In this document: piece by piece, positions 1-35,033 of the stretch
How the letters are laid out: each line of letters starts with the position of its first letter
Position numbering within the stretch: the first letter of the stretch is position 1
NCBI GenBank assembly: GCA_030679255.1
Contig: JAUXTO010000030.1
Location: 3,420 to 67,419 of the forward strand
Source of the DNA: Candidatus Gottesmanbacteria bacterium
GTDB lineage: Bacteria > Patescibacteriota > Microgenomatia > UBA10105 > UBA927
Reading direction: 5' to 3'
DNA length: 64,000 bases
Program-made: the position numbers and the translations under genes
The notes under the pieces: generated by a model
Databases searched by the model: none
What the model saw: the letters and a program-made list of their open reading frames with translations, nothing else
Told to the model about the DNA's origin: nothing

Positions 1-572
1 TCCTCGACAAATAGTCGATATGTCAACTTCCCATGCATCGGAGAATTTGAAAAATAATTCCGTATGATCGTAGAATCGCTGATAGGCTTCGACTTACTAT
101 CAACATATTCACCATACGATGACCATGGATACCTCTCGAGCTCCAGCCTCAAGGCCAGGCCTTGTGGCTGAGAGTCAAACATTTCTACAGGATTGATGTG
201 AATATATCGAGAAACATGTAACAAATATTCATCAGTATCAATGGCCTTCGCCTTAAATTTACCCTGAAAAACTGCCCCTACCCTCTCATATTTTTTATTG
301 AAGTACATTGTATAGGCAGTATGAAGCCGATGAATAAATCGATCAATTGACTCATCCCCATCTTGACGGAGAAGCAGATGAACATGGTTTGGCATCAGGC
401 AGTAAGCGAGAATGGTAACTTCATGCTTTTCCCGATACTCATGTAGTCGCTTGAGGTACCTTTGATAGTCCTTGGCATCATAAAAAATAGTCTGTTTATT
501 ATGTCCACGGTTATACACGTGATAGTACCCCTGGGCCATAAAAATCGGTAATCTCGCTGACATAATGATCAT
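1..572 (-). CDS. REP-associated tyrosine transposase (RAYT) / IS200-like HUH transposase, partial (C-terminus runs off window start)
   Basis: Minus-strand ORF absent from the supplied track because it is truncated by the window edge. It translates as M(IIM)SARLPIFMAQGYYHVYNRG...LAYCLMPNHVHLLL...YIHINP...YPWSSYGEY, showing the HUH motif (NHVH) and the Tyr-region architecture of IS200/RAYT. It is paralogous to ORF 45346..46080 and carries an in-frame family-1 palindrome (QPQGLALRLE). Confidence 0.7.
   Translation of the reverse strand, partial: MIIMSARLPIFMAQGYYHVYNRGHNKQTIFYDAKDYQRYLKRLHEYREKHEVTILAYCLMPNHVHLLLRQDGDESIDRFIHRLHTAYTMYFNKKYERVGAVFQGKFKAKAIDTDEYLLHVSRYIHINPVEMFDSQPQGLALRLELERYPWSSYGEYVDSKSKPISDSTIIRNYFSNSPMHGKLTYRLFVE
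145..169. repeat. family-1 palindrome (inverse orientation) inside RAYT gene 1..572
   Basis: agcctcaaggccaggccttgtggct encodes QPQGLALRLE on the minus strand. Confidence 0.7.
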
Positions 573-592
573 TATGCACCCATCACCACTCA

Positions 593-616
593 GGCACAAG
601 GCCTGGCCTTGAGGCT
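593..616. repeat. family-1 palindrome between the divergent RAYT and DHH genes
   Basis: ggcacaaggcctggccttgaggct, 20 bp upstream of the RAYT start. Confidence 0.7.
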
Positions 617-653
617 AAACATTCTATACCAGAGAATATGCTATACTTTCAAT

Positions 654-1481
654 ATGAAAACTATTGTTACCCATATCGGACCGGATTTGGATGCCATATC
701 CGCAGTTTGGCTCGTTAAAACGCAATTTCCTGATTGGGAAGAGGCCGCAATCGCCTTTGTACCGGCGGGCACAACTCTTGATAAAAAAAACCCGGATGAA
801 AACCCCGAAATCATCCATGTCGATACAGGATTGGGAAAATTTGATCACCATCAATCGAACGCCGATACGTGCGCCGCACAGCTGGTGTATCACGAAGTCA
901 AAAAAACAAAAGGCGCAGACCCTGCGCTCGAACGGATGACGACGGTGATCAATGATCTGGATCATTTCCGTGAAGTGTTTTACCCCAACCCGACCGCGGA
1001 CTTCTGGGATTTCTCCCTTATCACACAAATAGACGGCTGGCGGCTCCTCTATTCGGATAACCCGATTAAAATAGTCAGTCTCGGCATGGAAGCGCTGGAC
1101 GGCATCTACAAATCATTTCAGAACAAAATCTGGGCGGAAAAGGAACTGGCAGAAAAAGCCGTCCACTTTGAATCTCCCTGGGGCAAAGCGTTCGGCATAG
1201 AAACTACCAACGATGAGGTCGTCCACTTGGGACAGAAAATGGGGTATACCCTCGTCATCCGCCGCGATCCCAAGAAGGGCTACGTCCGGATCAAATCCCT
1301 CCCCAGAGATGACATCGATCTGACTTCCGTCTATAATACGCTTAAAGAAAGGGACCCCGCGGCGACTTGGTTTCTCCACCCGAGCCGCCACATGATCCTT
1401 AACGGGAGCGCCAAAAATCCGGACATGAAGCCGACGACGCTGACATTGGACGAACTGATAACTATTTTAAAAAAACCATGA
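654..1481 (+). CDS. DHH-family phosphoesterase (NrnA-like), putative
   Basis: MKTIVTHIGPDLDAISAVWL is a DHH motif-I-like N-terminus and GKFDHHQS is a DHH motif. The track ORF starts at 609 inside the upstream palindrome, so 654 (MKTIV) is the more likely start. Confidence 0.5.
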   Translation: MKTIVTHIGPDLDAISAVWLVKTQFPDWEEAAIAFVPAGTTLDKKNPDENPEIIHVDTGLGKFDHHQSNADTCAAQLVYHEVKKTKGADPALERMTTVINDLDHFREVFYPNPTADFWDFSLITQIDGWRLLYSDNPIKIVSLGMEALDGIYKSFQNKIWAEKELAEKAVHFESPWGKAFGIETTNDEVVHLGQKMGYTLVIRRDPKKGYVRIKSLPRDDIDLTSVYNTLKERDPAATWFLHPSRHMILNGSAKNPDMKPTTLTLDELITILKKP

Positions 1482-3039: not shown

Positions 3040-3133
3040 ATAAGGAATAATTGAATAAGGAAATAAGTAAATGAAAAACGCTTCTATCATTCATTATTCG
3101 TTTATTCTATTATTTACTTATTCGTTTATTTAA
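3040..3133. repeat. AT-rich ~95-bp interleaved inverted-repeat element (family 5), likely terminator between ybeY and dnaX
   Basis: Arms aataaggaataat / aaataagtaaat pair with cattattcg / atttacttattc. A second copy lies at 27975..28073. Confidence 0.6.
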
Positions 3134-3134
3134 T

Positions 3135-4625
3135 ATGTCTTTCTATCGAATCTATCGCCCGAAGGTATTGGATGAAATAGATAATGCCACGGTCCGGCAC
3201 ACGGTCGAGTTACTCCTCACCAAGCCCAAAACTGAGCTTCCGCATGCATACCTCCTTGTGGGCCCCAGAGGAACCGGTAAAACGACCACCGCGCGTGTCA
3301 TCGCCAAACTTTTCAATTGCGAGCATCCGACCAAATCCGGGGCTCCGTGTGGTAGCTGCGGACCATGTAAAGCAATCGCGGGCGGTCGGCATTTGGATGT
3401 CATGGAGATCGATGCAGCGAGCAATACCGGAGTGGATAATATCCGGGACCTGCGCGACCGCGTGGCCCTCGCTCCTGCTCAGGCCGTATGGAAAATCTAT
3501 ATCATCGACGAGGTACACATGCTTTCGACGGGCGCGTTTAACGCGCTCCTCAAGACGCTCGAGGAGCCCCCGACCCATGCGATTTTTATCCTCGCTACGA
3601 CCGACCCGCAAAAGATCCCGGCGACGGTCGTTTCCCGCTGCCAGGTTGTCTCATTTGGCAAAGCGCAAGCTCCAGATATCACCCACGCGCTTGAGCGGAT
3701 TATCGCGCAGGAAAAGATGAAGATAGACGCCGATGCGCTTTCCCTCATCGTGGACTCTGCGGATGGCTCATTCCGTGACGCCGTCAAAAACCTAGAGCAA
3801 ATCAGTTTTCATAAAGGCACGATTACGGTTGATGTGGTCAGAAGCAATCTGGGCATCGGGGCGCATACAGCCCGTGATACATTTCTTGCTAATATTTTGG
3901 CTCACGACACCAATGCAGCGCTTGGGAACGTCCAAAACGCAGTGAAAGAGGGAATAGACATCAAAGTGTTTCTTGTGGATTGCCTCCGTGAACTTGAACA
4001 CCGTCTGGTAGACCACGTTATCACAAAAAATACCGCCGGAACGATCCACCTCCGGACGCTCATCGAATGTTTCTCCGACGCGTATTCCCAACTTCGTACG
4101 AGCCCGATTCCGGAACTTCCGCTGGAGCTTGCCGTCGTAGAGTATTGTGAACAAAAAAATGAAAAGATTTCTCCGATCATCAATACACCTTTATCCGTCA
4201 TTCCGGGCTTGCTGCGCCCATCCGAAGCTTCCAGCGAAGGAGGGATCCGGAATCCAGTTCCCAAATTGCTGGATCCCGACCCGCTTCGACGTAGCGAGGC
4301 GAGCTCGCTGGCCGGGATGACAAAAAAAGAACCATCATCCGAACCGATTTCCACCGAAACCCTCGGTCTCATCACACGCGAAAAACTTATCGAGCATTGG
4401 AAAGACGTGATCGATGAACTCAAACCCTTTAATCATTCTGTTGCGGGGGTCATGCGCTCCACTAGACCCAAGGAGGTCGTTGATGGTATAGTCACCATAG
4501 AGGCATTTTATAAATTCCATCAGGAAAAATTGTCCGAAGTCAAAACGCGCGAAGTGATTGCAGGGGTTCTCAAAAAATTATTTGGTGAAAAGGTGAGAGT
4601 AGAGGTGGTGCTGGGAAAAAAATAG
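3135..4625 (+). CDS. dnaX: DNA polymerase III subunit gamma/tau
   Basis: Walker A GPRGTGKTT, zinc module CGSCGPC, IDEVHML and SRCQ motifs. Contains a ~124-bp family-3 palindromic element in frame at 4198..4321. Confidence 0.9.
   Translation: MSFYRIYRPKVLDEIDNATVRHTVELLLTKPKTELPHAYLLVGPRGTGKTTTARVIAKLFNCEHPTKSGAPCGSCGPCKAIAGGRHLDVMEIDAASNTGVDNIRDLRDRVALAPAQAVWKIYIIDEVHMLSTGAFNALLKTLEEPPTHAIFILATTDPQKIPATVVSRCQVVSFGKAQAPDITHALERIIAQEKMKIDADALSLIVDSADGSFRDAVKNLEQISFHKGTITVDVVRSNLGIGAHTARDTFLANILAHDTNAALGNVQNAVKEGIDIKVFLVDCLRELEHRLVDHVITKNTAGTIHLRTLIECFSDAYSQLRTSPIPELPLELAVVEYCEQKNEKISPIINTPLSVIPGLLRPSEASSEGGIRNPVPKLLDPDPLRRSEASSLAGMTKKEPSSEPISTETLGLITREKLIEHWKDVIDELKPFNHSVAGVMRSTRPKEVVDGIVTIEAFYKFHQEKLSEVKTREVIAGVLKKLFGEKVRVEVVLGKK
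4198..4321. repeat. family-3 composite palindromic element (GTCATYCCGGC...GCCGGGATGAC) inside dnaX, in frame
   Basis: gtcattccgggc...ggatccggaatcc...ctggatcc...gcgaggcgagc...gccgggatgac. Homologous copies at 8157, 16987, 17507 and 59326. Confidence 0.65.
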
Positions 4626-4719: not shown

Positions 4720-4986
4720 ATGATGAATCCATTTAAGGCGTTGGGAGACATGAACGCGATGCGCAAGCAAGCCATGGCCATCCAACAGGCGCTCGAAGGC
4801 GAGGAGTTTGAAGTGACCCAGGGCTCTGTCCGCGTCGTTATCACCGGCAACCAAAATGTGAAAGTAGTGGAGGTCGATGGGATGCCAAACGAAGATTTCA
4901 AACGCGCGATCAATGACGCAATCAAAAGAAGCCAACAGGCAGCAGCAGGAAAGTTAGCAGAGTTGTCCAAAAATTTTCAACAGTAA
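4720..4986 (+). CDS. ybaB: nucleoid-associated protein YbaB/EbfC
   Basis: MMNPFKALGDMNAMRKQAMAIQ... is typical YbaB. It follows dnaX as in most bacteria. Confidence 0.8.
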   Translation: MMNPFKALGDMNAMRKQAMAIQQALEGEEFEVTQGSVRVVITGNQNVKVVEVDGMPNEDFKRAINDAIKRSQQAAAGKLAELSKNFQQ

Positions 4987-5100
4987 GCACCTAGCATCAA
5001 AATCCAAGCACCAAACAAGAACAAACAAGAAGTAACTGGGTTGTTTATATATTGATGCTTGTATTTGTTTGTTTGGTACTTGGTGCTTGATGCTTGGAAT
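4985..5100. repeat. family-4 long imperfect hairpin (CCAAGCACCAAA / TTTGGTGCTTGG motifs)
   Basis: Left arm atccaagcaccaaacaagaacaaacaag pairs with right arm cttgtatttgtttgtttggtacttggtgcttgatgcttgg. Related copies at 26163, 43882 and 58254. Confidence 0.6.
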
Positions 5101-5106
5101 TTATAC

Positions 5107-6171
5107 ATGCAGGTTATTGTCACCGGCTCATTGGGCTTCGACTACATCATGGACTTTCCGGGACGGTTTGCCGACCGGATCATGCCGGATAATATCCATA
5201 AACTTTCGTTAAGTTTTCTCGTTGATAAACTTTCTAAACAATTCGGCGGTGTTGCGGGCAACATCGCCTATACACTCAAACTCCTTGGTGTCGATCCTCT
5301 CATTGTCGCCTGTGTAGGCAATGATTTTGCTCCATATAAAACACATCTCAACGATCATCAACTCAGCACGAAATGGATAAAAGAATTTAAAAATGAATCA
5401 TGCAGTCTCTACTCCGTTGTCACTGACCAGGACGATAACCAAATTGGTTCGTATTTCGTGGGAGCCATGAAACATGCAAAAGAATTATCTTTGCAAGACA
5501 TCGTCTTGCGAGGCAAGACGATGTCTTATGAAAATTTCGTCGTCATCTCTCCCACAGATCCCAAAGCTATGATCAAATACGTCAAAGAATGCCGATCACT
5601 CAAGATCCGGTACCTCTATGATCCGGCATTCCAGATTGCGACATTCTCACCAGAGGAACTCAAGGAGGGAATTACCGGCGCGGCCCTTTTCATCGGTAAC
5701 GACTATGAAATCTCCCTTGTGGAAAATCGCCTCGGCATCTCCCATGATGAGCTTCTCGCCATGGCGCCAGTCGTCATCACGACCCTGGGAGCCAAAGGCT
5801 CCATCATCGAGACCCGCAAGGAAGCCATCCACGTTGCTCCCGCCAAACCCAAAAATACCAGCGACCCGACTGGAGCGGGGGACGCCTACCGCGGGGGCTT
5901 CCTCGCCGGATACATAAAAGCTCTAGGCACAAGGCCAGGCCTTGAGGTTAGACAGCTTTCGGTTTCCCCAGGCACAAAACTGCACACTCTAGGCACAAGG
6001 CCTGGCCTTGAGGCTACGTTGTCCGCTGATGAACTTCTTGTCTGCGGTCAGATGGGCTCGGTCGCCGCCGTCTACACGGTCGAGACCTACGGCACCCAGA
6101 CCCACGCCTTCACGAAAAAAGAATTTGCAGCGCGTTATAAGGCCAACTTTGGGCTCCCGATCTCGTTATGA
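5107..6171 (+). CDS. PfkB-family carbohydrate/nucleoside kinase (putative adenosine kinase)
   Basis: PfkB signature DPTGAGDAYRGGFLAGY. Two family-1 palindromes are inserted in frame (GTRPGLEV...GTRPGLEA) after the signature. Neighbouring ahcY suggests an adenosine substrate. Confidence 0.75.
   Translation: MQVIVTGSLGFDYIMDFPGRFADRIMPDNIHKLSLSFLVDKLSKQFGGVAGNIAYTLKLLGVDPLIVACVGNDFAPYKTHLNDHQLSTKWIKEFKNESCSLYSVVTDQDDNQIGSYFVGAMKHAKELSLQDIVLRGKTMSYENFVVISPTDPKAMIKYVKECRSLKIRYLYDPAFQIATFSPEELKEGITGAALFIGNDYEISLVENRLGISHDELLAMAPVVITTLGAKGSIIETRKEAIHVAPAKPKNTSDPTGAGDAYRGGFLAGYIKALGTRPGLEVRQLSVSPGTKLHTLGTRPGLEATLSADELLVCGQMGSVAAVYTVETYGTQTHAFTKKEFAARYKANFGLPISL
5927..5950. repeat. family-1 palindrome GGCACAAGGCCWGGCCTTGAGGYT (copy in PfkB kinase CDS)
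   Basis: ggcacaaggccaggccttgaggtt. Confidence 0.7.
5993..6016. repeat. family-1 palindrome (second copy in PfkB kinase CDS)
   Basis: ggcacaaggcctggccttgaggct. A partial copy ggcacaaaac lies at 5971. Confidence 0.7.
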
Positions 6172-6191: not shown

Positions 6192-6740
6192 ATGACTCCC
6201 GGCCAAACCATCAAAACATTCACAACTAAAAAAGGCAATACTGTCGTCATCCGGTATCCCAAATGGGAAGATTTGGATGACGTACTCGCCTTTGCCAATA
6301 ATCTTGTTGAAGAAGAAGCTCTCCTTGCCCTTTCCAAAAAACAAACGCGTGCAGAGGAAGCGAAGTGGATGGCGGATACATTTGAAAAAATCGAAACCGG
6401 AAAAAAAATTAAACTTGTGGCCGTGGTGAATGGAAAGTATGCCGGCAACTGCGAGATTCGCATCCATGACAATCGGGAATCTCACGTTGGTGACATCGGC
6501 ATCGCATTGAGCAAAGACTACCGCGATGAAGGTATCGGCGCCGAGCTTCTCACGACACTCATTGCCCAAGGAAAAAACGCTGGTCTCAAACTTCTCATTC
6601 TTTACTGTTATGAAAACAATGATCGCGCTCTCCATCTCTATGAAAAATTGGGATTTACTCGTTCCGGCCTCGTCCCGGGAACCTTCGCATATAAAGGAAG
6701 CTACATTGGAGATGTCACTTTGTACTTGCCTCTCAAATAG
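6192..6740 (+). CDS. GNAT-family N-acetyltransferase
   Basis: 182 aa with an acetyl-CoA binding-like segment (GIGAELL...GK). Confidence 0.7.
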   Translation: MTPGQTIKTFTTKKGNTVVIRYPKWEDLDDVLAFANNLVEEEALLALSKKQTRAEEAKWMADTFEKIETGKKIKLVAVVNGKYAGNCEIRIHDNRESHVGDIGIALSKDYRDEGIGAELLTTLIAQGKNAGLKLLILYCYENNDRALHLYEKLGFTRSGLVPGTFAYKGSYIGDVTLYLPLK

Positions 6741-8144: not shown

Positions 8145-8156
8145 ACGACCACGTTC

Positions 8157-8250
8157 GTCATTCCCGCGTACGCTCGCCTCGCTGGAGCTCCGGCGAAGCG
8201 GGCGGGAATCCAGAGTAAAAACACTGGATCCCGGCCTTCGCCGGGATGAC
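8157..8250. repeat. family-3 composite palindromic element (intergenic copy)
   Basis: gtcattcccgcg...gcgggaatcc agagtaaaaacactgg atcccggccttcgccgggatgac. Imperfect terminal inverted repeats GTCATYCCSGCG. Confidence 0.65.
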
Positions 8251-8259
8251 AATATTTCC

Positions 8260-8811: not shown

Positions 8812-9126
8812 ATGATTACTGACGCAGATATCAAGAAACTCAAAAAAGTCTTTGCCACCAAGGATGATCTGAAACAGTTTGCCACCAAGGATGATCTGAA
8901 ACAGTTTGCAACGAAAGAGGACTTCAACACCATGGAAAGAACATTGAGAGGCGATATCGCAAACGACCTTAAGTACATGGAAGCCAGATTAAGAAAAAAC
9001 ATTGTTGACGATGTCGCAGATATGTTGCAGGAGAGTGTTATCAATCTGTTGAGCCAACACGAAGAACGAATCGACCGCTTGGAAAAGCACGTTGGCGGTT
9101 TTCCAGCAATCGCGAGCGCCAGTTGA
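8812..9126 (+). CDS. hypothetical small protein with FATKDDLKQ tandem repeats
   Basis: Three 9-aa repeats (27-bp DNA tandem) followed by a charged helical tail. A paralogue lies at 56988..57269. Confidence 0.5.
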   Translation: MITDADIKKLKKVFATKDDLKQFATKDDLKQFATKEDFNTMERTLRGDIANDLKYMEARLRKNIVDDVADMLQESVINLLSQHEERIDRLEKHVGGFPAIASAS

Positions 9127-9625: not shown

Positions 9626-9715
9626 TGTCAAGCTGGAGCCACGGCGGGAGCTAGCCCCGCCGACGCTCCACCTTACATAAATAAAAACTTTTGTATACAA
9701 TGAAAGGAGATCATT

Positions 9716-11596
9716 ATGAAACACAATGACAACGAGTATCTCAACAACATGCGCCATAGTTGCGCGCACTTGCTTGCTCACGCAATAAAGATCCTGTATC
9801 CGGGAGCACTCAATGCCATAGGACCTGCAATAGAACACGGATTCTATCAGGATTTTGATATGGGCAAGTGGAAAATTTCTGAAGAAGATTTCCCCAAGAT
9901 TGAAGCAAAAATGCGAGAGATTCTTCCAAGGTGGGTGAAATTTAGCTTCAACGAAATATCTCTTGCAGAAGCGATACGACTATTCAAAGACAATAAGTAT
10001 AAAGTCGAAATGGCCACAGAATTTGCCGCAGGCGGCAAAAAGCTCATGACTAACGACCCGGGAGACTTTCTGGATCTTTGTAAAATGGGCCATGTCGAAA
10101 ATCCCTCCAAAGAACTCTCGAACTTCGAACTACTCTCCGTCGCCGGCGCTTACTGGCGGGGAAGCGAAAAAAATAAAATGTTGACACGGATTTACGGCAC
10201 CTGTTTCCCGACCAAAGATGAACTCGATGCCCATCTTCATCAATTGGAAGAATCCAAAAAAAGAGATCACCGTAAAATAGGTCAGGATCTGGATTTATTT
10301 TCGACAAACCCACTTACAGGACAGGGTCTTATCCTCTGGCACCCAAAGCTCTCCGTGACCCGAAATATCGTAGAACAATTTTGGAAGGCAGAACATTATA
10401 AGCGGGGATATCAGCTTGTTTATACGCCCCATATCGCAAGCATGGATATGTTTGTCAAAAGCCGTCACCTGTCCAAATACATCAATTCCATGTTTCCCGT
10501 CATGCTGCATGAGTACATCGAGGGAGAGAGTGCTCCGGATTATCAGGTCGACGAGATACTCAAACCCATGAACTGCCCCAATCATATTCAGATATACAAA
10601 CACCGGCCGCGAAGTTACCGCGAGCTACCGTTGAGGATCGGAGAACTTGGGACGGTGTACCGCTATGAACGCGCAGGAGTCCTTCATGGACTAACGAGAG
10701 TACGGGGATTTACCCAGGACGACTCACACATCTTCTGTACATCTGATCAGGTGATCGATGAGGTACGCGGGGTACTCCGGATTATGAAAGATTTTTACGC
10801 GCTGTTTGGCTTTAAGGACTATCAGGCATATATTTCCACCCGTCCGGAAAAATATCTCGGAACCCTTGAGACGTGGCACATGGCCGAAGAATCACTCAAA
10901 AAAGCGGCTGCCGACGAAGGCTTTGATTACAAAATAGACGAAGGTGAAGGGGTATTTTATGGACCAAAAATCGATATCAAAGTCAAAGACTCTATCGGCC
11001 GGGAATGGCAACTCGGTACGGTGCAGTTTGACTTTAACCAGCCATCTCAAGCGGAGACCACGGATGATGAGATCGAAGAGTTTTGGAAGCTCAAGACGTT
11101 TAAACATAAATTCAAGACTAAAGAAGCGATGGCCAAATACCTCCGGAAACTTGGACGAGGATTTAATGTAACGTATGTGGATGCCGATGGAAAAGAAAAA
11201 CAGTGCGTCATGATCCATCGAGTAATTTTCGGCTCTTTGGAACGCTTCTTTGGCATCCTCATCGAACACTACGCCGGAGCGTTTCCTGTGTGGCTTGCCC
11301 CAGTCCAAGTAGCCCTCATTCCGATAGCTGAGCGGCATAATGAAGGGGCAAAAAAGGCCCTACAGGCTCTACGGGACGCGGGGCTACGCGTGGAGCTTGA
11401 TGACCGCAATGAGTCGATGCAGGCCAAAATCAGGAATCACACATTGCAAAAAGTGCCCTACCTGGCTATAATGGGAGATCGTGAGATCCAGGGTGCAACT
11501 GTATCCGTGAGGACCAGGAGCGGCGAGGATCTCGGGGCTATGAGCCTCGAGCAATTTGTCCGCAACGTCAACGACGAGATTGAACGCAAACACTAA
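9716..11596 (+). CDS. thrS: threonine--tRNA ligase
   Basis: N2 editing-domain HxxxH (CAHLLAH), class II core, C-terminal anticodon-binding domain. Lacks the TGS domain and carries a ~35-aa insertion near 11050..11160. Confidence 0.9.
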   Translation: MKHNDNEYLNNMRHSCAHLLAHAIKILYPGALNAIGPAIEHGFYQDFDMGKWKISEEDFPKIEAKMREILPRWVKFSFNEISLAEAIRLFKDNKYKVEMATEFAAGGKKLMTNDPGDFLDLCKMGHVENPSKELSNFELLSVAGAYWRGSEKNKMLTRIYGTCFPTKDELDAHLHQLEESKKRDHRKIGQDLDLFSTNPLTGQGLILWHPKLSVTRNIVEQFWKAEHYKRGYQLVYTPHIASMDMFVKSRHLSKYINSMFPVMLHEYIEGESAPDYQVDEILKPMNCPNHIQIYKHRPRSYRELPLRIGELGTVYRYERAGVLHGLTRVRGFTQDDSHIFCTSDQVIDEVRGVLRIMKDFYALFGFKDYQAYISTRPEKYLGTLETWHMAEESLKKAAADEGFDYKIDEGEGVFYGPKIDIKVKDSIGREWQLGTVQFDFNQPSQAETTDDEIEEFWKLKTFKHKFKTKEAMAKYLRKLGRGFNVTYVDADGKEKQCVMIHRVIFGSLERFFGILIEHYAGAFPVWLAPVQVALIPIAERHNEGAKKALQALRDAGLRVELDDRNESMQAKIRNHTLQKVPYLAIMGDREIQGATVSVRTRSGEDLGAMSLEQFVRNVNDEIERKH

Positions 11597-13074: not shown

Positions 13075-14973
13075 TTGAGAAGAAAAAATATGACCAACCT
13101 TATCTACATGACCGACAGTTACCGGACTGAGCTTGCCGCTCAGGTGGTGTCGTGCATCAAAAAGGGGAGCGGGTGGGAGATAGTGCTCGACCAAACGATT
13201 TTCTACCCGCAGGGGGGCGGGCAACCGTCAGACAAAGGAACGATCAAGGGAAAACAGGGGCTTGCGACGGTCAAGCATGTCCGGATGTTGGGCGATGAGG
13301 TCATCCACGAATGTGCCTTGAATGGGACAATCGATGAAAAGGAGTCGGTTGAATGTTCCATCGATTGGAATGCTCGGTACCACAACATGCGTGCCCATAG
13401 CGCGGGTCACGTCGTCCATGAAGCGGTGAGGCTCGTCGCGCCATATCTGGATCCGATTAAAGGAGAGCACGGAAAATCCGCATATATTGAGTACAAGGGT
13501 TCTCTTCCTGTCGACAAAAAACCACTTATCGAACAACAAGGTAACGACCTAATCCGACAAAATTTGACCCTTAAAACCGAATTTGTGACTCTGGACGAAC
13601 TTCAAAAGAGAGCTTCGTACATTCCTGAGCATCTTCCAAAACACAAGCCGCTTCGCATTCTTTCGGTAGGTAACTATCCACCTATTCCCGATGGGGGTAC
13701 GCAGGTAAAATCCACCGGAGAAATAGGGGAGATAACTATTACTTCAGTGGATAACGCAGATGATCACGTTCGTGTTTACTACGCAATACCTCCAAACGAA
13801 TCCGATGAAACAAAAAACGATACCTGCCAATCAGTCGACTCAACTGTATCAACATCTAGGCACGATACCGGGAATCAAGCAATCAAAGTGGATCAAATTA
13901 TGACCGCCCCGCAATTTATCGGCCTTCTCTTGGATGCTCAACGCAATGCTAAAGAATTTATTACCATTTCAGATAAATCAGCCGAAGAACTTCGATTGCT
14001 TCTTTTAGGCCCGAAAAGCGAACTTGGCCGGCTCACCAAACAAATCCGTCAAGTACCAGCCTCCGATCGAGGGAATGTCGGGGTGGTCGTCAACGAAGTC
14101 AAGAGTTCTATTATTGAGGCCATCGCCATCCACGCCGCTCATTCCACAACTTCAAAGCCTGGCTTTGATTTGAATTGGGCCGATGTAACAATCCCGGGTA
14201 TTCGACCCCCCGAAGGTCATCTGCATATTGTGTCACAGGCGATCACTGAAATCACGCGGATTTTCGAACGGATCGGCTTCACGCGCGTCCGGCACCCGGA
14301 GGTTGACTGGGATTACTATGCGTTTGAGGCGCTTAACATGCCGCCGCACCACCCGGCCCGCGACGAATGGGAAACCTTCTTCATCGACTACCCCGGCAAA
14401 CCTCCAGGCACAAGGCCTGGCCTTGAGGCTACGCGCAGGAAACAAATTGTGCTTACTCCCCACACGAGCAATGGCCAGGTGCGTGAGATGGAAAAGGGAA
14501 AGCTTCCCATCCGCATGATCAACATTGCTAAGTGTTATCGTCGTCAATCCGATGTATCCCACGTCCCGATGTTTCATCAATTTGAAGGCATGTATATTGA
14601 TAAAGGAGTCACCATCGGAGACTTGACTGGAGTATTTAATTTTTTCGTAAAAAATTACTTTGGTCCAGACCGCAATGTCCGTTTACGCCCGTTCCATTTT
14701 CAATTCACCGAGCCTTCTGTTGAAATTGATATCAACTGTGGTATTTGTCTGGGCAAGGGATGTCGATTGTGCAAAGAAGGTTGGCTTGAAATGGCTGGTG
14801 GGGGTATGGTGCACCCAAATGTACTTAAAGCTGGTGGGGTAGATCCGAGCGTCTACAGTGGTTTTGCTTTTGGATGGGGTGTTGAACGCGCCGCCATGAT
14901 GAAATCCGGCACCAAACTCGATGACATCCGATTGCTGTATAGCAATGACATTCGATTTCTCAATCAATTCTAA
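13075..14973 (+). CDS. pheS: AlaX-like tRNA-editing domain fused to phenylalanine--tRNA ligase alpha subunit
   Basis: N-terminal ~270 aa resembles AlaX (YMTDSY...FYPQGGGQPSDKGTI...HSAGHVV...DGGTQVKSTGEIG). C-terminal ~350 aa is PheS (class II motifs, LTPHTSNGQVR, FGWGVERAAM). No stop codon separates them. Family-1 palindrome in frame at 14407..14430. Confidence 0.75.
   Translation: MRRKNMTNLIYMTDSYRTELAAQVVSCIKKGSGWEIVLDQTIFYPQGGGQPSDKGTIKGKQGLATVKHVRMLGDEVIHECALNGTIDEKESVECSIDWNARYHNMRAHSAGHVVHEAVRLVAPYLDPIKGEHGKSAYIEYKGSLPVDKKPLIEQQGNDLIRQNLTLKTEFVTLDELQKRASYIPEHLPKHKPLRILSVGNYPPIPDGGTQVKSTGEIGEITITSVDNADDHVRVYYAIPPNESDETKNDTCQSVDSTVSTSRHDTGNQAIKVDQIMTAPQFIGLLLDAQRNAKEFITISDKSAEELRLLLLGPKSELGRLTKQIRQVPASDRGNVGVVVNEVKSSIIEAIAIHAAHSTTSKPGFDLNWADVTIPGIRPPEGHLHIVSQAITEITRIFERIGFTRVRHPEVDWDYYAFEALNMPPHHPARDEWETFFIDYPGKPPGTRPGLEATRRKQIVLTPHTSNGQVREMEKGKLPIRMINIAKCYRRQSDVSHVPMFHQFEGMYIDKGVTIGDLTGVFNFFVKNYFGPDRNVRLRPFHFQFTEPSVEIDINCGICLGKGCRLCKEGWLEMAGGGMVHPNVLKAGGVDPSVYSGFAFGWGVERAAMMKSGTKLDDIRLLYSNDIRFLNQF
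14407..14430. repeat. family-1 palindrome inside pheS (encodes GTRPGLEA)
   Basis: ggcacaaggcctggccttgaggct. Confidence 0.7.
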
Positions 14974-15408: not shown

Positions 15409-17496
15409 ATGAATATATTAGTACCAGATTCATGGTTGCGAGAATTCCTTATTACAAAGGCAACTCCGCAGCAAATCAAGGAATACCTCTCTTTGTGCGG
15501 TCCATCGGTTGAACGGATGCATGAGGAGGATGGGGAATTCATTTATGACATCGAGGTTACGGGCAACCGCCCGGATTCAATGTCCATAGTGGGTATCGCG
15601 CGAGAAGCGGCAGCCATCCTCCCACGCTTTGAAATTGCGGCAAAATTACAAAATGATCCCTATTCACAAAACTACGCACAAAAGGTGAGACCTTTTGAGG
15701 CTAATAATTTGACAAAAAAACTCGTTATCAAAACCGATCCGATCCTCAATCCGCGTTGGACGAGCGTCGTTATGGATAACGTGAAGGTGGGGCCGTCGCC
15801 AGTATGGCTTCAAAAACGGCTCGAGGCAACGGGGATCCGCTCGCTGAACACGATTGTCGATGTGACCAATTACATCATGCGGGCCTATGGTCAACCGGTT
15901 CATGCGTTTGACTACGACCAGGTACTGCCAAAAAATGGCGTTTCCACCATGATCCTTCGTGCCTCAAAAAAAGGAGAGCGGGTGATCACTCTCGATGGCA
16001 AAACGCACATCCTGCCCGGTGATGACATCGTCATAGAGGACGGATCAGGGAGACTTATCGACCTATGCGGCATCATGGGCGCCCAAAATTCATCGGTAAA
16101 AAGCACAACGAAAACCATTGTCCTCTTTATGCAAACGTACGAACCCACGCACATCAGAAAAACCAGCATGTCTTTGGCCCATCGAACAGAAGCAGCCGAT
16201 CTTTTTGAAAAGGGGCTCGATCCGGAACTGGTTTTGCCCTCGGTTCTCAAAGGAATTGAACTTATCGCCCAGGTTGCTGGAGGAAAAGTCTCAAGTAAAA
16301 TTTACGATATCTACCCCAAACCGTATAAATCATCTACTGTTTCCGCCTCTCGGACAAAGTCTGATGCCTACATCGGCAAACGTCTGAAAGACAAAGAGAT
16401 TGCCGATATTCTCAAACCCCTCGGTTTCCAAGCAAAAGTCACCAAAGACAGTATCACGGTCACGGTTCCCAGTTTCCGCCGGGATGTGACGATTGACGTC
16501 GACATCATCGAGGAACTGGCACGCATCTACGGCTACCACAACATCACGTCGACCCTTCCGGACACCGCCCCGCCCGTCGTTATACCCGATCAATCACTTA
16601 GTTGGGAGGAAGAAATCAAAGTGCGACTGCGCGATTGGGGATACACCGAAACCTACACCTACTCCATGATTTCCGAAGAACTTATGGATATCTTTGGATT
16701 GGACAAATCTAAAGCGTATAAAATTGCCAATCCATTATCCAACGAATGGGTCTACATGCGACCCAGCCTCTGGCCCAGCATGCTTTCTACCGTCAAACAA
16801 AACATGAATATAACACAAAATCTAAGACTCTTTGAGTTGAGTATGGTATATGATTACCGACGCGGCGATCTTCCCGACGAAAAGCCCGTTTTACTCATTG
16901 CGTGGACAGGAGATAAATTTTATGAAGCGAAGGGACTCGCGGAGGCAATTCTTGATTTGCTTGGTATCGGGATACCTGCCGAATCTGTCATCCCGGCGAA
17001 CGCCGGGATCCAGAGTACAAAAAAACTGGATCCTCGGGTCAAGCCCGAGGATGACAAGCAACTCGATTGGTACGGCGCACAACGACTATCATTTGGTAGT
17101 TTTGGATCCATCGGACTCGTTCACCAGAAATTTCTTGATGCATTACAAATTCATACACCCGTAACCATCCTGGAATTGGATGTTGCAGAGCTTGTCAAGT
17201 ATGCGCGCTCCACCAAGCAATACATCCCCATCCCAAAATATCCTGCAAGCTACGAGGACCTAGCATTCGTGTTGCCACCACAGACACCCGTCGGCCCCAT
17301 GATTGCCGCGCTCAAATCCGCACACTCATTAGTGAGCGACGTTTCACTCTTAGATCAATTTGAAACCACGACCACCTTTCACATCACCTATCTTTCATTG
17401 GAAAAAAATTTGACAACTGAAGATATCCGCCCCATCCGCGAGAAGCTCATCGCCATGGCCCAAAAGAAATTCAACGCGCAGCTCAAGACAGTGTAA
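15409..17496 (+). CDS. pheT: phenylalanine--tRNA ligase beta subunit
   Basis: MNILVPDSWLREFL N-terminus, B3/4 and B5 domains, C-terminal FDX-ACB-like domain. 695 aa, so likely lacks the tRNA-binding B2 domain. 69-bp family-3 element in frame at 16987..17055. Confidence 0.9.
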   Translation: MNILVPDSWLREFLITKATPQQIKEYLSLCGPSVERMHEEDGEFIYDIEVTGNRPDSMSIVGIAREAAAILPRFEIAAKLQNDPYSQNYAQKVRPFEANNLTKKLVIKTDPILNPRWTSVVMDNVKVGPSPVWLQKRLEATGIRSLNTIVDVTNYIMRAYGQPVHAFDYDQVLPKNGVSTMILRASKKGERVITLDGKTHILPGDDIVIEDGSGRLIDLCGIMGAQNSSVKSTTKTIVLFMQTYEPTHIRKTSMSLAHRTEAADLFEKGLDPELVLPSVLKGIELIAQVAGGKVSSKIYDIYPKPYKSSTVSASRTKSDAYIGKRLKDKEIADILKPLGFQAKVTKDSITVTVPSFRRDVTIDVDIIEELARIYGYHNITSTLPDTAPPVVIPDQSLSWEEEIKVRLRDWGYTETYTYSMISEELMDIFGLDKSKAYKIANPLSNEWVYMRPSLWPSMLSTVKQNMNITQNLRLFELSMVYDYRRGDLPDEKPVLLIAWTGDKFYEAKGLAEAILDLLGIGIPAESVIPANAGIQSTKKLDPRVKPEDDKQLDWYGAQRLSFGSFGSIGLVHQKFLDALQIHTPVTILELDVAELVKYARSTKQYIPIPKYPASYEDLAFVLPPQTPVGPMIAALKSAHSLVSDVSLLDQFETTTTFHITYLSLEKNLTTEDIRPIREKLIAMAQKKFNAQLKTV
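16987..17055. repeat. family-3 palindromic element inside pheT (69 bp, in frame)
   Basis: gtcatcccggcgaacgccgggatcc agagtacaaaaaaactgg atcctcgggtcaagcccgaggatgac. Two small hairpins flank a spacer. Encodes VIPANAGIQSTKKLDPRVKPEDD. Confidence 0.7.
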
Positions 17497-17506: not shown

Positions 17507-17564
17507 GTCATCCCCGACCCGCTTCGCCGGAGCGTCAGCGAGGCGAGCGTACGCCGGAAATGAC
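17507..17564. repeat. family-3 palindromic element module (intergenic, after pheT)
   Basis: gtcatccccgacccgcttcgccggagcgtcagcgaggcgagcgtacgccggaaatgac. Confidence 0.55.
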
Positions 17565-20648: not shown

Positions 20649-20737
20649 GCTGAGGTGGCAGAGTTTGGCAATTGCCCCTGACTGTAAATCAGGTGCCCTA
20701 CAGGGCTTCGGAGGTTCAATTCCTCCCCTCAGCACCA
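20649..20737 (+). tRNA. tRNA-Tyr (GTA), class II with long variable arm, CCA encoded
   Basis: Acceptor GCTGAGG/CCTCAGC, anticodon loop cuGUAaa, long variable arm, T-arm GGTTCAATTCC, 3' ACCA. Confidence 0.85.
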
Positions 20738-27741: not shown

Positions 27742-27990
27742 ATGAAAGATACCCTCCTTTTTCTCGTGGCCTCAATTGTGGATCATCCCGATGACGTATC
27801 CGTCATCGAAGAGATCAATGAAGATCGTACGATTCTTCGCCTAACCTGCCACCCTGAAGACATGGGTAAAGTCATCGGAAAAAGCGGCCGGATCATCCGG
27901 GCAATCCGGGATCTGGTCAAACTCATCGCGGCCAAACGCGGAGTATACGCCGATGTGGAGTTAGTAGAAAATAATCCAATAAAGGAATAA
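27742..27990 (+). CDS. KH-domain RNA-binding protein (YlqC/UPF0109 family)
   Basis: VIGKSGRIIRAIRDL is a KH GxxG-type motif. Sits in the canonical position after rpsP. Confidence 0.8.
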   Translation: MKDTLLFLVASIVDHPDDVSVIEEINEDRTILRLTCHPEDMGKVIGKSGRIIRAIRDLVKLIAAKRGVYADVELVENNPIKE

Positions 27991-28073
27991 TAGAATAAAC
28001 AAATAAGAGAATACAAATACTGCAGCTCCATTTGATTATTCCATTATTTCGTTATTCTCTTATTCGTTTATTA
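27975..28073. repeat. family-5 AT-rich interleaved inverted-repeat element (second copy)
   Basis: ggaataat ... aataagagaata ... attattcc ... tattctcttatt (A-B-A'-B' order). Overlaps the stop of the KH gene. Confidence 0.55.
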
Positions 28074-28083
28074 TCCTCCTTGT

Positions 28084-28776
28084 ATGCTCATCACGATCCT
28101 CACCCTCTTCCCTGAAATGTTTATCGGCCCATTCGACTACTCGATCGTCAAGCGCGCGCAGGGTAAAGGAAAGGTAACCATACAAACAATCAATATCCGT
28201 GACTATGCCAATGACGCATATAAATCCGTTGACGACCGCCCCTACGGCGGGGGAGTGGGGATGATTATGAGAGTCGATGTGATCGACCGGGCGCTACAAC
28301 AGACAATAAACAATAAGCAAAAAACAACAACGAAAATAGTTCTTCTTGATCCTCGCGGCACTACCTTCACGCAAGCGAAAGCCAGGACGCTCGCCAAACT
28401 CGACCATCTCGTTCTCATCTGCGGACACTATGAGGGCATTGATGAACGGGTGAAATCGCTCGTCGATGAGTCTCTTTCTATCGGCGATTATGTCCTTACG
28501 GGCGGAGAACTTCCTGCAATGGTCATGACCGATGCAATCGTCCGCCTTCTCCCCGGTGTATTAAAAGAAGGGGTCACTCAATCCGAATCGTATTCATTCG
28601 AAATTCGAAATTCGAAATTCGAAATTCCAATGTTAGAATATCCCCAATACACCCGTCCAGAAGTATACAACGGCATGAAGGTGCCGGAAGTTCTCCTCTC
28701 CGGTAATCATAAAAAAATAGAGCAGTGGAAAAAAGATCACGCTACCGCGAAAAAGGGTCGCGTTTACCGCCCGTAA
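28084..28776 (+). CDS. trmD: tRNA (guanine37-N1)-methyltransferase
   Basis: SPOUT-family TrmD motifs. Contains a (TTCGAAA)x4 tandem in frame at 28598..28625. Confidence 0.9.
   Translation: MLITILTLFPEMFIGPFDYSIVKRAQGKGKVTIQTINIRDYANDAYKSVDDRPYGGGVGMIMRVDVIDRALQQTINNKQKTTTKIVLLDPRGTTFTQAKARTLAKLDHLVLICGHYEGIDERVKSLVDESLSIGDYVLTGGELPAMVMTDAIVRLLPGVLKEGVTQSESYSFEIRNSKFEIPMLEYPQYTRPEVYNGMKVPEVLLSGNHKKIEQWKKDHATAKKGRVYRP
28598..28625. repeat. heptamer micro-tandem repeat (TTCGAAA)x4 inside trmD
   Basis: ttcgaaattcgaaattcgaaattcgaaa encodes FEIRNSKFEI. Confidence 0.65.
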
Positions 28777-32992: not shown

Positions 32993-33466
32993 TTACTGTA
33001 CAAGGGTCACTTCACTCATATCGCCGCTTTTCATAACCGTAAACCGGAGGGTTTGGGATGCTCCGACGATAGTGACCGTCACATCGCTATCAGCTCCCTG
33101 CGTCAGTACGCGAAAAAGCATGTCCGCAGGAACCGGGGAAAATGTATTGCCGCTTTCGAGTGTGTAGGTTTGTGCGCTTCCAGCAGGACCGTCAGAACAC
33201 TGTGCTTGAATGGCGTACGTATTGGAGGTGAAACTCACCCGATATCCCAACAATTGAGTACAACCATTCCCTGGTTTATCCCCATTATACGCCCGGGATT
33301 GGGCAAGCCGGAGATTGTTTTTGACCGTGAGCACTGCCGATCTGGTCTTCTGCGCGTCATTGTAGGTATTGTAGTTGACGATCACTCCGCCCGTGATAAG
33401 CATCACAATGGCTACAGAAACCAAAAGTTCGATGAGGGTGAACCCATTAGGGGCTTTTTGCGCCAT
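32993..33466 (-). CDS. prepilin-type N-terminal cleavage/methylation domain protein
   Basis: NGFTLIELLVSVAIV. Confidence 0.8.
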   Translation of the reverse strand: MAQKAPNGFTLIELLVSVAIVMLITGGVIVNYNTYNDAQKTRSAVLTVKNNLRLAQSRAYNGDKPGNGCTQLLGYRVSFTSNTYAIQAQCSDGPAGSAQTYTLESGNTFSPVPADMLFRVLTQGADSDVTVTIVGASQTLRFTVMKSGDMSEVTLVQ

Positions 33467-33896
33467 AATTGTGACTATTCGTTGTATCAGGTGTACACGT
33501 ATCTGCAGGGTTTACTTCCGATTCAATAAGCGCGCTCATACAATATCCGTAATAATTGCCTCCTGATGGATTTGCGGGTTGATAGCGATAGGTTTGGGTG
33601 GATTTGGGATCTGATGGGATAGCAGGAAGATAACTACTCACCAATGTTGTGCTCAGGCATGAAGCATCATTCCAACTTGGTGACACATTCGCGCAGCCCT
33701 GGGAGGAACCAGGGTAATACCCCGTATCGGCCCTGTACATCTCGAGCCCACTACGCAATTGCTCAATATCTCCCTTTCGTTTTGCGTCCCGTGACCGTTT
33801 ATTCACAGATCCGTACGATACGACACCGATCGAAATAAGAATAGCAATGATAGACACAGCGATAAGTAATTCAATGAGGGTAAATCCTTTTTTCAT
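33447..33896 (-). CDS. type IV pilin (GspG/PilA-like)
   Basis: MKKGFTLIELLIAVSIIAILISIGV plus a C-terminal Cys pair. Confidence 0.8.
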   Translation of the reverse strand: MKKGFTLIELLIAVSIIAILISIGVVSYGSVNKRSRDAKRKGDIEQLRSGLEMYRADTGYYPGSSQGCANVSPSWNDASCLSTTLVSSYLPAIPSDPKSTQTYRYQPANPSGGNYYGYCMSALIESEVNPADTCTPDTTNSHNYGAKSP

Positions 33897-33900
33897 AATC

Positions 33901-34305
33901 TTACTGAACATTTTTTACACAATATCTTCCAACATATCCGGTAGTCAATGTGTCGGAGACATCGCAACCCGCTACGCTATTTGTTTCACCCTCAAGTTCC
34001 GCGCATACGCAATAAATCGAACTCGTACAATCATTATCTTCCACATAGGTAGTACTTTTCTTGGGATCAGTGGGCAAACCGTTGGGTAAATAACTTGTCC
34101 CCGGAGAACAATTTGAAGGGTATGATCCACCAAAATCTGCGTTATATTGTTCCATTGCGCTTTGAATCGCTTTCAGATCACTTTTTCTCCGGCTATCCCT
34201 GGTTTTTTTCTGTGCCGTGGTGTATGCAAATGTCGCAATCGAAACGAGTATGCCGATGACGGCAATGACAATGAGTAACTCGATAAGCGTAAATCCACGT
34301 TTCAT
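33901..34305 (-). CDS. type IV pilin
   Basis: MKRGFTLIELLIVIAVIGILVSIA. Its ATG overlaps the pilD stop as ATGA. The track ORF's upstream extension to 34608 overlaps pilD and is discounted. Confidence 0.8.
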   Translation of the reverse strand: MKRGFTLIELLIVIAVIGILVSIATFAYTTAQKKTRDSRRKSDLKAIQSAMEQYNADFGGSYPSNCSPGTSYLPNGLPTDPKKSTTYVEDNDCTSSIYCVCAELEGETNSVAGCDVSDTLTTGYVGRYCVKNVQ

Positions 34306-35033
34306 AGTATATTCATCCACCATTGGATTAATTGCTTCCCCCAACCCAAAGCGATGATCGTTCCCAACACAAGAAACGGACCAAACGCAATGTGTGCGCG
34401 GAGCTGGGTTTTGCCCGTTAAAATAAGTATGACACCCACTACCGCACCCGTCAAGAATGCGAGGTAGGAAGCGACTATAATATTTGGAAAACCAAGAAGT
34501 AATCCCATCAGAAACGCAAATTTCACATCCCCCAGTCCCATACCTTTTCCGCGTGTCACAAGCCATAAAAGGAAAAAAAATCCTCCCGCGCCAAGAGCCG
34601 ATAGCCACAAGGCCTGGCCTTGAAGGAGGACGCCGACTATCCCAATGATGACCATGCTATCCGGAATGATCTGGTATTTAAAATCAGCAACGAAGATCAC
34701 CAGCAGTGAACAAAAAAACAGCAGCCATCCCACCAAAGCCAGGCTTTGGGGAAATTCTAAAGCCTGGCTTTGAAGATAAACAAATCCCACAGCCGTCACC
34801 AATTCCACCACCGGATACTGCCAGAATAATTTTTCATGACATCTCCGGCATCGACCACGTTGGAGAAAAAAAGAGAGAAGGGGAATGAGCTCATACCACC
34901 GAAGCACTTTTTTACAATGATCGCAAACAGACCGTCCTGTGATCACATCTTCCCCCCGCGGCAGCCGGTCAATGAGGACATTGAGAAACGATCCTACTGC
35001 CAGACCAAAGATAAATACTATCAATTCCATCAT
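34302..35033 (-). CDS. pilD: prepilin peptidase (A24 family, PilD)
   Basis: N-terminal Zn-finger CDHC...CRRCH and polytopic TM domain. Three in-frame family-1-type palindromes (LQSQALEF, PQSLAL, LQGQALWLS). Confidence 0.85.
   Translation of the reverse strand: MMELIVFIFGLAVGSFLNVLIDRLPRGEDVITGRSVCDHCKKVLRWYELIPLLSFFLQRGRCRRCHEKLFWQYPVVELVTAVGFVYLQSQALEFPQSLALVGWLLFFCSLLVIFVADFKYQIIPDSMVIIGIVGVLLQGQALWLSALGAGGFFFLLWLVTRGKGMGLGDVKFAFLMGLLLGFPNIIVASYLAFLTGAVVGVILILTGKTQLRAHIAFGPFLVLGTIIALGWGKQLIQWWMNIL
34604..34627. repeat. family-1 palindrome variant inside pilD
   Basis: agccacaaggcctggccttgaagg. Confidence 0.65.
34734..34775. repeat. two family-1-related palindromes (CCAAAGCCAGGCTTTGG and AAAGCCTGGCTTTGAAG) inside pilD
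   Basis: ccaaagccaggctttgg gga aattc taaagcctggctttgaag. Core AARGCCWGGCYTT shared with GGCACAAGGCCTGGCCTTGAGG. Confidence 0.6.

Follow-up and report, generated by a model that had tools for sequence, protein, structure and literature searches.

How a short palindromic repeat comes to lie in frame inside a kinase, a tRNA synthetase, a peptidase and a transposase is the question raised by a 64,000-nucleotide stretch of a Candidatus Gottesmanbacteria genome (contig JAUXTO010000030.1, positions 3,420 to 67,419; here called the window). The window is 48% G+C, and its coding share is ~93% by a greedy count of open reading frames (ORFs). The repeat, here called family A, resembles a repetitive extragenic palindromic (REP) sequence, and the transposase, RAYT2, is a REP-associated Y1/HUH tyrosine transposase (RAYT). 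We consider it probable that family A is the REP of a REPtron, a RAYT gene flanked by its cognate REPs, that RAYT2 is the transposase of that REPtron, and that copies of the repeat were dispersed in frame into genes.

Family A is defined by its DNA. The sequence GGCACAAGGCCWGGCCTTGAGGCT is present six times in the window, where none is expected by chance, and a GC variant, AAAGCCWGGCTTTG, is present three times (at 14153, 34734 and 34758). The degenerate core AARGCCWGGCYTT has nine matches against 0.01 expected, and the 24-mer GGCACAAGGCCTGGCCTTGAGGCT, allowing up to three mismatches, has five copies against none expected. A repeat search returned a 32-nt family of six members, with a copy in pilD added to the 24-mer matches. 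In canonical orientation the repeat reads (G/C/T)TAG-CCTCAAGGCC-N-GGCCTTG(T/A)G(C/G)C, a short imperfect palindrome with a GTAG-like head. The head tetranucleotides are GTAG (in two copies, and in the symmetric ones when their reverse strand is read), CTAG, TTAG, CTAA and CCAG, giving the consensus NTAG. Units are 24-32 nt long, with a GC-rich core stem of 6-7 bp and a loop of 1-3 nt, and the stem reaches 12-13 bp in the copies that flank RAYT2. When single-stranded DNA is folded, a 6-bp stem closed by a 3-nt loop is predicted for the dispersed copies, at about -5.5 to -6.6 kcal/mol, and the copy inside RAYT2 (-11.6) and the downstream flanking copy (-13.1 kcal/mol) are more stable. Family A therefore has the form of a REP, a hairpin-forming imperfect palindrome of 20-40 nt. 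Moreover, asymmetric flanks beyond the palindrome (CTCYAGGCAC...GAGGCTACG) are common to copies in unrelated genes, and the copies in PfkB and PheS are 97% identical across 32 nt.

The repeat does not have the extragenic location of a REP. ORFs contain five of the six strict copies and 11 of the 12 family-like copies in the window. The only intergenic copy (588..619, plus strand) lies in the spacer between RAYT2 and a divergent ChrB_C-like gene. Five of the six reading frames through a family-A unit are open, and the remaining one has a stop codon. Every host ORF is uninterrupted, and each copy is flanked on either side by conserved domains, in agreement with the original prediction that all copies preserve the reading frame. 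A conserved protein motif was considered as the source of the similarity and was ruled out, as the identity is at the DNA level in unrelated genes and the peptides are missing from most orthologues.

In-frame insertion was demonstrated in the PfkB-family (adenosine-kinase-like) gene (5107..6171, plus strand; Pfam PfkB, E=4e-33). The gene had been said to hold a tandem pair that duplicates GTRPGLE, and it does: unit 1 (5921..5952, plus strand) encodes GTRPGLEV and unit 2 (5987..6018, plus strand) encodes GTRPGLEA. The doublet constitutes a 35-residue insertion, and the Pfam match ends at residue 287, immediately ahead of it. We compared 103 orthologues having both anchor motifs. The loop is empty, with the eight residues LRKFDLAT, in 61 of them and holds 16-43 residues in the other 42, of which 22 are family-A-like (TRPGLE, SRPALE, ARPGLAK), 5 come from a GATTCCSGGAATC palindrome, and 15 are of other kinds. 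At the DNA level, the single-unit locus L017 (such labels denote related loci) is 27 nt longer than the empty locus L016, and its insert includes GGCACAAGGCCCGGCCTTGAGGCT. The same site holds a 33-nt perfect palindrome in L013, with the core of the L017 insert, and two GATTCC palindromes in L011. In an AlphaFold model of PfkB (predicted template modelling score, pTM, 0.81), the insert is a loop (277-302) with a predicted local distance difference test score (pLDDT) of <50, between helices 257-274 and 307-326.

The two PfkB units also behave as a pair. Together they (5915-6025, with a 42-nt spacer) fold as a single long hairpin (dG -25.4 kcal/mol, z -3.8), the arrangement of two nearby REPs that defines a REPIN (REP doublet forming a hairpin). 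Their flanks are in direct, not inverted, orientation, and the pairing depends on the units being nearly palindromic. A second variable site in PfkB is occupied by a perfect palindrome of a different family (5495..5527, plus strand), 33 nt long with a 15-bp stem, a 3-nt loop and the core CGTCTTGC-GAG-GCAAGACG. That palindrome is in frame, encodes QDIVLRGKTMS, and is missing from the short orthologue L016; the site holds GATTCCSGGAATC in L011 and GGGTTCAACCCTGC...GCAGGGTTGAACCC in L017.

In-frame insertion was likewise demonstrated in PheS. The gene (13090..14973, also given as 13075-14973, plus strand) encodes a protein with Pfam matches to tRNA-synt_2d (E=9e-78), tRNA-synt_2c, tRNA_SAD and Phe_tRNA-synt_N, and it hosts one family-A REP and one GC variant. 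The REP (14402..14433, plus strand) encodes PGTRPGLEAT and was found, as predicted, between FFIDYPGKP and LTPHTS. Solved PheS structures (4P71, 2RHQ) align across the whole catalytic core with a single 17-residue gap, which falls exactly opposite DYPGKPPGTRPGLEATR. Among 120 orthologues the site ranges from FFI--TKNIVL up to inserts of 40 residues, many of them family-A-like (ASRPGLEATRPGLE, SRPGLERKKQ) and others derived from other palindromes, and the empty form is present at the DNA level in L019. The GC variant TCAAAGCCTGGCTTTGA (14152..14168, plus strand) encodes SKPGFD in a linker, and the same peptide occupies the same place in orthologues P0127 and P0134. We also observed that PheS, at 632 residues, carries a fused N-terminal AlaX-like editing module (the C-terminal part of tRNA-synt_2c plus tRNA_SAD), an architecture common to many Gottesmanbacteria orthologues, not all.

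The third dispersed host is pilD (34302..35033, minus strand), which encodes a family A24 prepilin peptidase with the Pfam domains A24_N_bact and Peptidase_A24. Three variants had been placed in this gene, and one family-A copy and two GC variants (LQSQALEFPQSLAL) are indeed present in frame. The family-A copy (34599..34630, plus strand), of the GGCC type, matches the consensus at 20 of 24 nt, reads LLQGQALWLS on the minus strand, and occupies a short loop between two hydrophobic segments. The GC variants CCAAAGCCAGGCTTTGG and TAAAGCCTGGCTTTG (QSQALEFPQSLAL; 34733..34772, plus strand) occupy the linker between the two Pfam domains. Alignment with homologues, which was to reveal insertions in all three hosts, did so for PfkB and PheS but not for PilD, which is no longer than its homologues. 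The proposed kinship of the GGCC and GC variants was upheld in part: AAAGCCWGGCTTTG retains the palindrome through two compensatory changes, but family-A flanks are missing. GC variants were not found in the related loci examined.

RAYT2 has the features of a REP-associated transposase. The gene (1..563, minus strand) is cut by the window edge, and the complete protein is 198-206 residues long (P0241). It matches Pfam Y1_Tnp (E=7e-16), and both the HVHLL motif and the tyrosine of YIHINP are invariant in the alignment, supplying the HUH motif and catalytic tyrosine by which a RAYT is recognized. The best NCBIfam match is REP_Tyr_transpos (E=5e-18), with IS200 at only E=1e-4. An AlphaFold model (pTM 0.85) has as its top fold match 4ER8, the Escherichia coli RAYT with a REP hairpin (E=1.9e-8, TM score 0.67), which ranks ahead of the IS608, ISDra2 and IS200 transposases. 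A phmmer search of RAYT2 against the sequences of solved structures returned nothing, and a profile search against solved structures returned ISDra2 only, around the HUH motif.

The position of RAYT2 is conserved, and the gene is bracketed by the repeat. In seven genomes the order is proS (sometimes with one small gene), RAYT, ChrB_C-like gene, YqeY, YbeY and DnaX, and the RAYT proteins at this position are 57-100% identical. On gene order and protein identity, this is the pattern that a vertically inherited, domesticated transposase would leave. A Logan contig that extends the window leftward places a repeat both upstream and downstream of RAYT2 in the source genome, and the RAYT is bracketed by its repeat in L004, L011, L012, L013, L020 and L021, and also in L014 and L015. 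RAYT2 is thus a gene flanked by its cognate REPs, as in a REPtron. The downstream REP abuts or overlaps the RAYT2 stop codon, the stop TAG being the TAG of the REP head. The leftward Logan contig has an additional copy after the neighbouring SNase gene and terminates there. As a separate observation, REPs supply stop codons and C-terminal residues in L004 (2110-2135), L018 (8935-8965) and L011 (10614-10645), and the final residues and stop of proS in L004 (…LSLKARP*) are encoded by a REP.

A second RAYT in the window has a different repeat. RAYT1 (45346..46080, minus strand) is 42% identical to RAYT2, and its palindrome, TGACAGGGTCTCGCCCTGTCA, is unlike family A. Copies of that palindrome lie at the 5' end of RAYT1 (46059-46080) and twice within its ORF (45837-45857 and 45546-45566), and the remaining TGACAGGGTCTCGCCCTGTCA copies are likewise in ORFs, such as recG, a YfhO-like ORF and the ORF at 43988..44725. 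RAYT2 and RAYT1 are the only RAYT-like ORFs in the window, with no third RAYT and no tnpB. The existence of two REP-RAYT systems in the genome is supported, and with it the original prediction of two such systems, each REP family partnered with its own RAYT paralogue; for family A the partnership agrees with the Y1_Tnp and REP_Tyr_transpos matches, the 4ER8 fold and the bracketing repeats. Whether copies cluster near the cognate RAYT was a further point raised by that prediction. Family-A copies are all at or below 38.2 kb of the window and those of RAYT1 all within 24-46 kb, which is suggestive of clustering in a small sample that includes tandem copies.

Each of the two transposase genes contains a copy of its own REP. 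In both, the copy is in frame and its place in the protein is the same, between YIH(I/L)NP and YP(W/Y)SSY. In RAYT2 the copy (141..172, minus strand) encodes SQPQGLALRL between YIHINP, which holds the catalytic tyrosine, and YPWSSY. At this place RAYT2 reads NPVEMFDSQPQGLALRLELERYPWSSY (145-168 encoding PQGLALRL) and RAYT1 reads NPKEVTGSRPVSVREYPYSSY (45546-45566). The internal copy of RAYT2 forms an inverted pair with the intergenic copy at 588..619 (28 nt, 96% complementary), which lies 30 nt upstream of the likely start codon (ATG 563) or 21 nt upstream of ATG 572; copies had been reported both within the RAYT gene and upstream of its start, and both are there. In the RAYT2 model the internal peptide is a lower-confidence loop and the start of a helix, directly after the helix of the catalytic tyrosine.

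What is conserved at the internal site is the DNA. The peptide Q-G/S-x-A-L/M/F occurs there in 81 of 120 RAYT2 homologues, and in those 81 the residue x is P (47), R (25), L (5) or Q (4) and no other. As P, R, L and Q are the four amino acids encoded by CNG, the underlying DNA is CAAGGCC-N-GGCCTTG with a free loop base, which indicates that the conserved entity is the palindrome. Moreover, the Q, A and L codons are identical in five of five genomes: three of the four internal-site residues have identical codons across these genomes, against 16 of 114 (14%) other conserved residues (p~0.01).

The internal copy also matches the copies outside the gene. Internal and flanking cores are the same in eight genomes, that is, in each examined genome having an internal copy. 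The shared core is CAAGGCCWGGCCTTG in the window and L004 (internal copy at 1195-1215), CAAGGCCCGGCCTTG in L011 (10395-10420) and L021, CAAGGGCGGGCCTTG in L012 and L013 (~10394-10420), and TTTAGCTTCCAAGGCCGGGCCTTG in L020. The internal copies of L020 and L021 are at ~6390-6410, and the L021 internal copy is identical to the downstream one over 24 nt. L014 (~1060-1080) is more distant, and there the shared core is a different palindrome, AACCCCWGGGGTT, with the peptide TPGVEL. The RAYT of L015 (52% identical) has flanking AAGGCCAGGCCTT REPs and no internal copy. The internal copy is maintained as DNA and continues to match the copies beside the gene across changes of family (CAAGGCC-N-GGCCTTG, CAAGGGCGGGCCTTG, AACCCCWGGGGTT, TGACAGGGTCTCGCCCTGTCA). 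Matching might be kept by gene conversion, or the copy may be a cis site for the RAYT, for example in autoregulation. Such a cis element could be bound or cut by the RAYT as a way to sense or curb expression of its own gene, or could delimit the copied unit. That the internal REP is a functional cis element in a large clade of Patescibacteria RAYTs, and that REP turnover in protein loops is a general source of length variation in proteins of the Candidate Phyla Radiation (CPR), is a proposal that we make tentatively and with more doubt than confidence. The parts of the REP/RAYT literature seen in a keyword search make no mention of an internal REP copy in a RAYT ORF. The copy offers a testable handle on how a RAYT recognizes its repeats and how a RAYT is restrained.

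How RAYT2 would disperse the repeat can be proposed by analogy with TnpA_REP, which recognizes the hairpin and GTAG head of a single-stranded REP and cleaves at an adjacent CT dinucleotide (PMC8266576). RAYT2 would bind the single-stranded hairpin with its NTAG head, and would cut and rejoin DNA at replication forks, copying single units (~27 nt, nine codons) or doublets. As the genome is ~93% coding, most landings would be inside genes. The copies that survive would be those that keep the frame, avoid the stop-bearing frame (one in six) and fall in a permissive loop. Existing hairpins would attract later elements or be replaced by them, and such hot spots would explain why different palindromes occupy the same PfkB and PheS loops across genomes. 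In Marinomonas, REPs are concentrated near tnpA_REP genes (PMC8266576).

Several findings weigh against this account. No direct sign of mobility was seen, and in no single species did filled and empty alleles occur together. In the 7-21 kb around the RAYT, the repeat is confined to the REPtron or its immediate surroundings in five of six related genomes, the exception being the PfkB-site inserts in L012 and L013; entry into PfkB, PheS and PilD would thus seem to be peculiar to the source lineage and the close relatives P0002 and P0003. Where many orthologues have inserts at one site, a single old insertion could be their common origin, and not repeated hits. PilD, at 243 residues, is among the shortest of its homologues (236-322 residues) and has no net length gain, and because the homologues compared (50%-identity representatives) are at most 53% identical to PilD and PilD is not longer, the comparison does not establish a net insertion there. 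The head does not adhere strictly to GTAG, varying among the tetranucleotides given above; degenerate heads are tolerated in some published REP families (PMC3733652, PMC8266576). RAYT2 scores 65.3 bits against REP_Tyr_transpos (NF047646), under the curated cutoff of 80, and RAYT1 scores 38 bits, such that neither protein reaches the family model. The two are divergent members, REP_Tyr_transpos being still their best family by far. Finally, scans of genome and metagenome contig collections with the 20-mer CACAAGGCCWGGCCTTGAGG returned four stretches from each, among which the only true relative was one metagenome-assembled genome (MAG), CAYHFH01.

The palindromes might not have been moved by a RAYT at all. 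They might instead have arisen and been homogenized in place, by template switching, which would turn quasi-palindromes into perfect ones, and by gene conversion among copies, with the RAYT-flanking copies being just members of the family. The window is rich in perfect palindromes (28 hairpins with stems of at least 8 bp, against ~8 expected), belonging to many families of which most have no RAYT there. Moreover, PilD shows no net insertion, and concerted evolution of the internal and flanking copies of the RAYT genes requires either conversion or selection. We nevertheless consider an origin in place unlikely: it would not yield asymmetric flanks shared between unrelated genes, such as the 97% identity over 32 nt between PfkB and PheS, each RAYT paralogue is bracketed by its own family, and empty and filled PfkB differ by a discrete 27 nt. 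Alternatively, the repeat peptides, or hairpins in mRNA or DNA, might be functional modules kept by selection as an interaction or regulatory motif or as a pause or stability signal, and not tolerated selfish DNA. This seems improbable to us, as no insert is present in 61 of 103 PfkB and in many PheS orthologues, one and the same loop holds unrelated palindromes from genome to genome, the PfkB insert is modelled as a disordered loop, and the hosts (kinase, tRNA synthetase, peptidase and transposase) are functionally unrelated. Selection of this kind would nonetheless agree with the filling of the same loops in many orthologues, with the predominance of the RPGLE frame at the PfkB and PheS sites, and with the conservation of the RAYT internal copy as DNA over a large clade.

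RAYT2 might also be the transposase of an ordinary active insertion sequence (IS) of the IS200/IS605 type, with the flanking palindromes as the IS ends and the dispersed copies as solo ends or miniature inverted-repeat transposable elements. Such an element would not be expected to keep to a single chromosomal position, as this gene does in seven genomes with proteins 57-100% identical, and the window has neither tnpB nor a second copy of RAYT2. The Y1_Tnp fold is common to the IS200, IS608 and ISDra2 transposases and the NCBIfam RAYT score is under its cutoff, but the RAYT structure 4ER8 is the top fold match, ahead of the IS transposases, and the RAYT family is matched at E=5e-18 against 1e-4 for IS200. 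We regard an ordinary IS as very improbable. The reading that we prefer remains a REPtron, with RAYT2 as the transposase and family A as its REP.

The repeats do not derive from the assembly. Artefact was ruled out as a source because independent Logan and NCBI assemblies concur. The pilD and RAYT2 regions are identical in independent Logan assemblies of run SRR13727518, with an exact match for pilD, and the window PfkB is 100% identical to an NCBI Candidatus Gottesmanbacteria protein. In all, ~66 kb of the source genome were covered, with eight strict family-A copies and six looser ones; REPs often number more than 100 per genome. Separately, the Logan contig L018 terminates exactly within a family-A REP copy (9658-9688), which suggests that family-A repeats break short-read assemblies of the source genome. 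The MAG found in the collection scans is represented by CAYHFH010000033.1 (L002) and CAYHFH010000016.1 (L004), which have orthologous RAYT, proS and PfkB at 78-84% identity. It was deposited as 'uncultured Gammaproteobacteria'; by these orthologues it is evidently a Gottesmanbacteria relative, and the deposited label looks wrong.

The window contains further repeats besides those of the two RAYTs. Related to family A is a subfamily with a copy in pheT (15677..15702, plus strand), which keeps the flanks (CACAA...TTGAGGCT), differs in the stem (AAGGTGAGACCTT) and encodes AQKVRPFEA. A second copy of the AAAAGGTGAGACCTTTT subfamily (38171..38199, plus strand) is in frame in the ORF at 37264..39306 (minus strand), and a loose relative, CAAGGCAGTGCCTTG, with a repeated TAGCCTCGCAAGGCAGTGCCTT unit (36064..36078, plus strand), is in frame in the YfhO-like ORF. 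At least two other palindromic families, with no RAYT of their own in the window, occur at 8155-8251, 16986-17057, 17509-17559, 46649-46688 and 59324-59425. One is built of (A)TCC(TCGGG/CGGC)...GGAT units with GATGACA tails, and the other is a ~59-nt element, CCCGCTTCGCCGGAGCG..AGCGAGGCGAGC. Intergenic spacers contain AT-rich repeats of ~60-130 nt, composed of inverted AAGCACCAA/TTGGTGCTT and GGAATTT motifs, at 4985-5115 (just upstream of pfkB), 43866-44010 and 58251-58384. An 8-nt periodic AT-rich motif (TTATTCGTTTATTC-like) lies upstream of two genes (3082-3146 and 28024-28088) and is inverted at 27969-28006. A 27-nt unit, TTTGCCACCAAGGATGATCTGAAACAG, is tandemly duplicated at 8851-8904 and 57048-57101, with 74% identity between the loci, which suggests paralogous genes sharing a 9-residue repeat. 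An Rfam scan of the window at the gathering threshold returned only a tRNA at 20649-20734 and no RNA family overlapping the repeat, and a GC-skew profile of the window gave no help in assigning strands.

Among replicators that live in bacterial genomes and are inherited vertically, REP-RAYT systems are the main example, and work on them has been nearly confined to Proteobacteria, in which the repeats lie between genes. Here, such a system persists in a ~1-Mb CPR genome with almost no intergenic space by residing in essential genes. The same protein loops are repeatedly hit or refilled across species, which offers a concrete source for lineage-specific insertions and deletions in CPR proteins. 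For annotation and alignment, GTRPGLE, QGxAL and TGSRPV should be treated as repeat-encoded peptides and not as protein motifs.

How the system compares with known ones depends on which feature is considered. Like the REPtrons of Proteobacteria (E. coli, Pseudomonas, Stenotrophomonas and Marinomonas; PMC2817692, PMC3333891, PMC8266576; structure 4ER8), it has a vertically inherited Y1/HUH transposase, in single copy in the window, with short imperfect palindromes that have a (G)TAG-type head on either side of the gene. As in those REPtrons, too, the RAYT paralogues have separate REP families, doublets can fold as one hairpin, and copies lie near the gene. Unlike them, the host is a CPR bacterium, the copies are almost all intragenic and not extragenic, the head is a loose NTAG, and the RAYT ORF holds a conserved in-frame cognate REP. 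Our literature search found no paper linking REPs or RAYTs to Patescibacteria.

Intragenic REPs have a precedent. REPs of the GTAG/CGTC type have been documented in frame within genes, often as dimers encoding 20-30 residues and including tRNA synthetases, with hosts such as Opitutus terrae, Thauera and Xanthomonas recB, and in related species a gene can have different REPs at roughly one site (Di Nocera et al. 2013, PMC3733652). Family A is similar in its in-frame insertions, including dimers and a tRNA synthetase, and in the reuse of sites among related species. In that study, however, intragenic REPs are a minority of a mostly intergenic population, whereas 11 of 12 copies here are in ORFs, and the occupancy of two loops can here be traced across ~100 orthologues each, with turnover of palindrome families.

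RPE-1 type Rickettsia palindromic elements (RPEs) are ~100-150 bp long, and we know of no transposase dedicated to them. The original prediction held that family A behaves like RPEs. In the summary of Ogata et al. (2000) given in PMC3733652, RPEs are selfish palindromes of a reduced genome that have inserted in frame and are tolerated in proteins. The resemblance extends to that in-frame behaviour in functional genes of a reduced genome, and to that alone: family-A units are REPs of 24-32 nt with a cognate RAYT in a Gottesmanbacteria host, bear no sequence relationship to RPEs, and are not RPEs. The HUH/Y1 fold is shared with the IS200/IS605 transposases (IS608, ISDra2; 2VJV, 2XM3), and their recognition of single-stranded hairpins with a guide tetranucleotide is a model for how REPs would be cut and joined. 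Unlike IS200/IS605, this system has neither a mobile IS unit nor tnpB nor multiple copies of the gene; the gene is fixed at one locus and only the hairpins are dispersed. Ultimately, what distinguishes this system from those already known is its host lineage, the nearly total intragenic distribution of its repeats, and the conserved REP inside the RAYT ORF.

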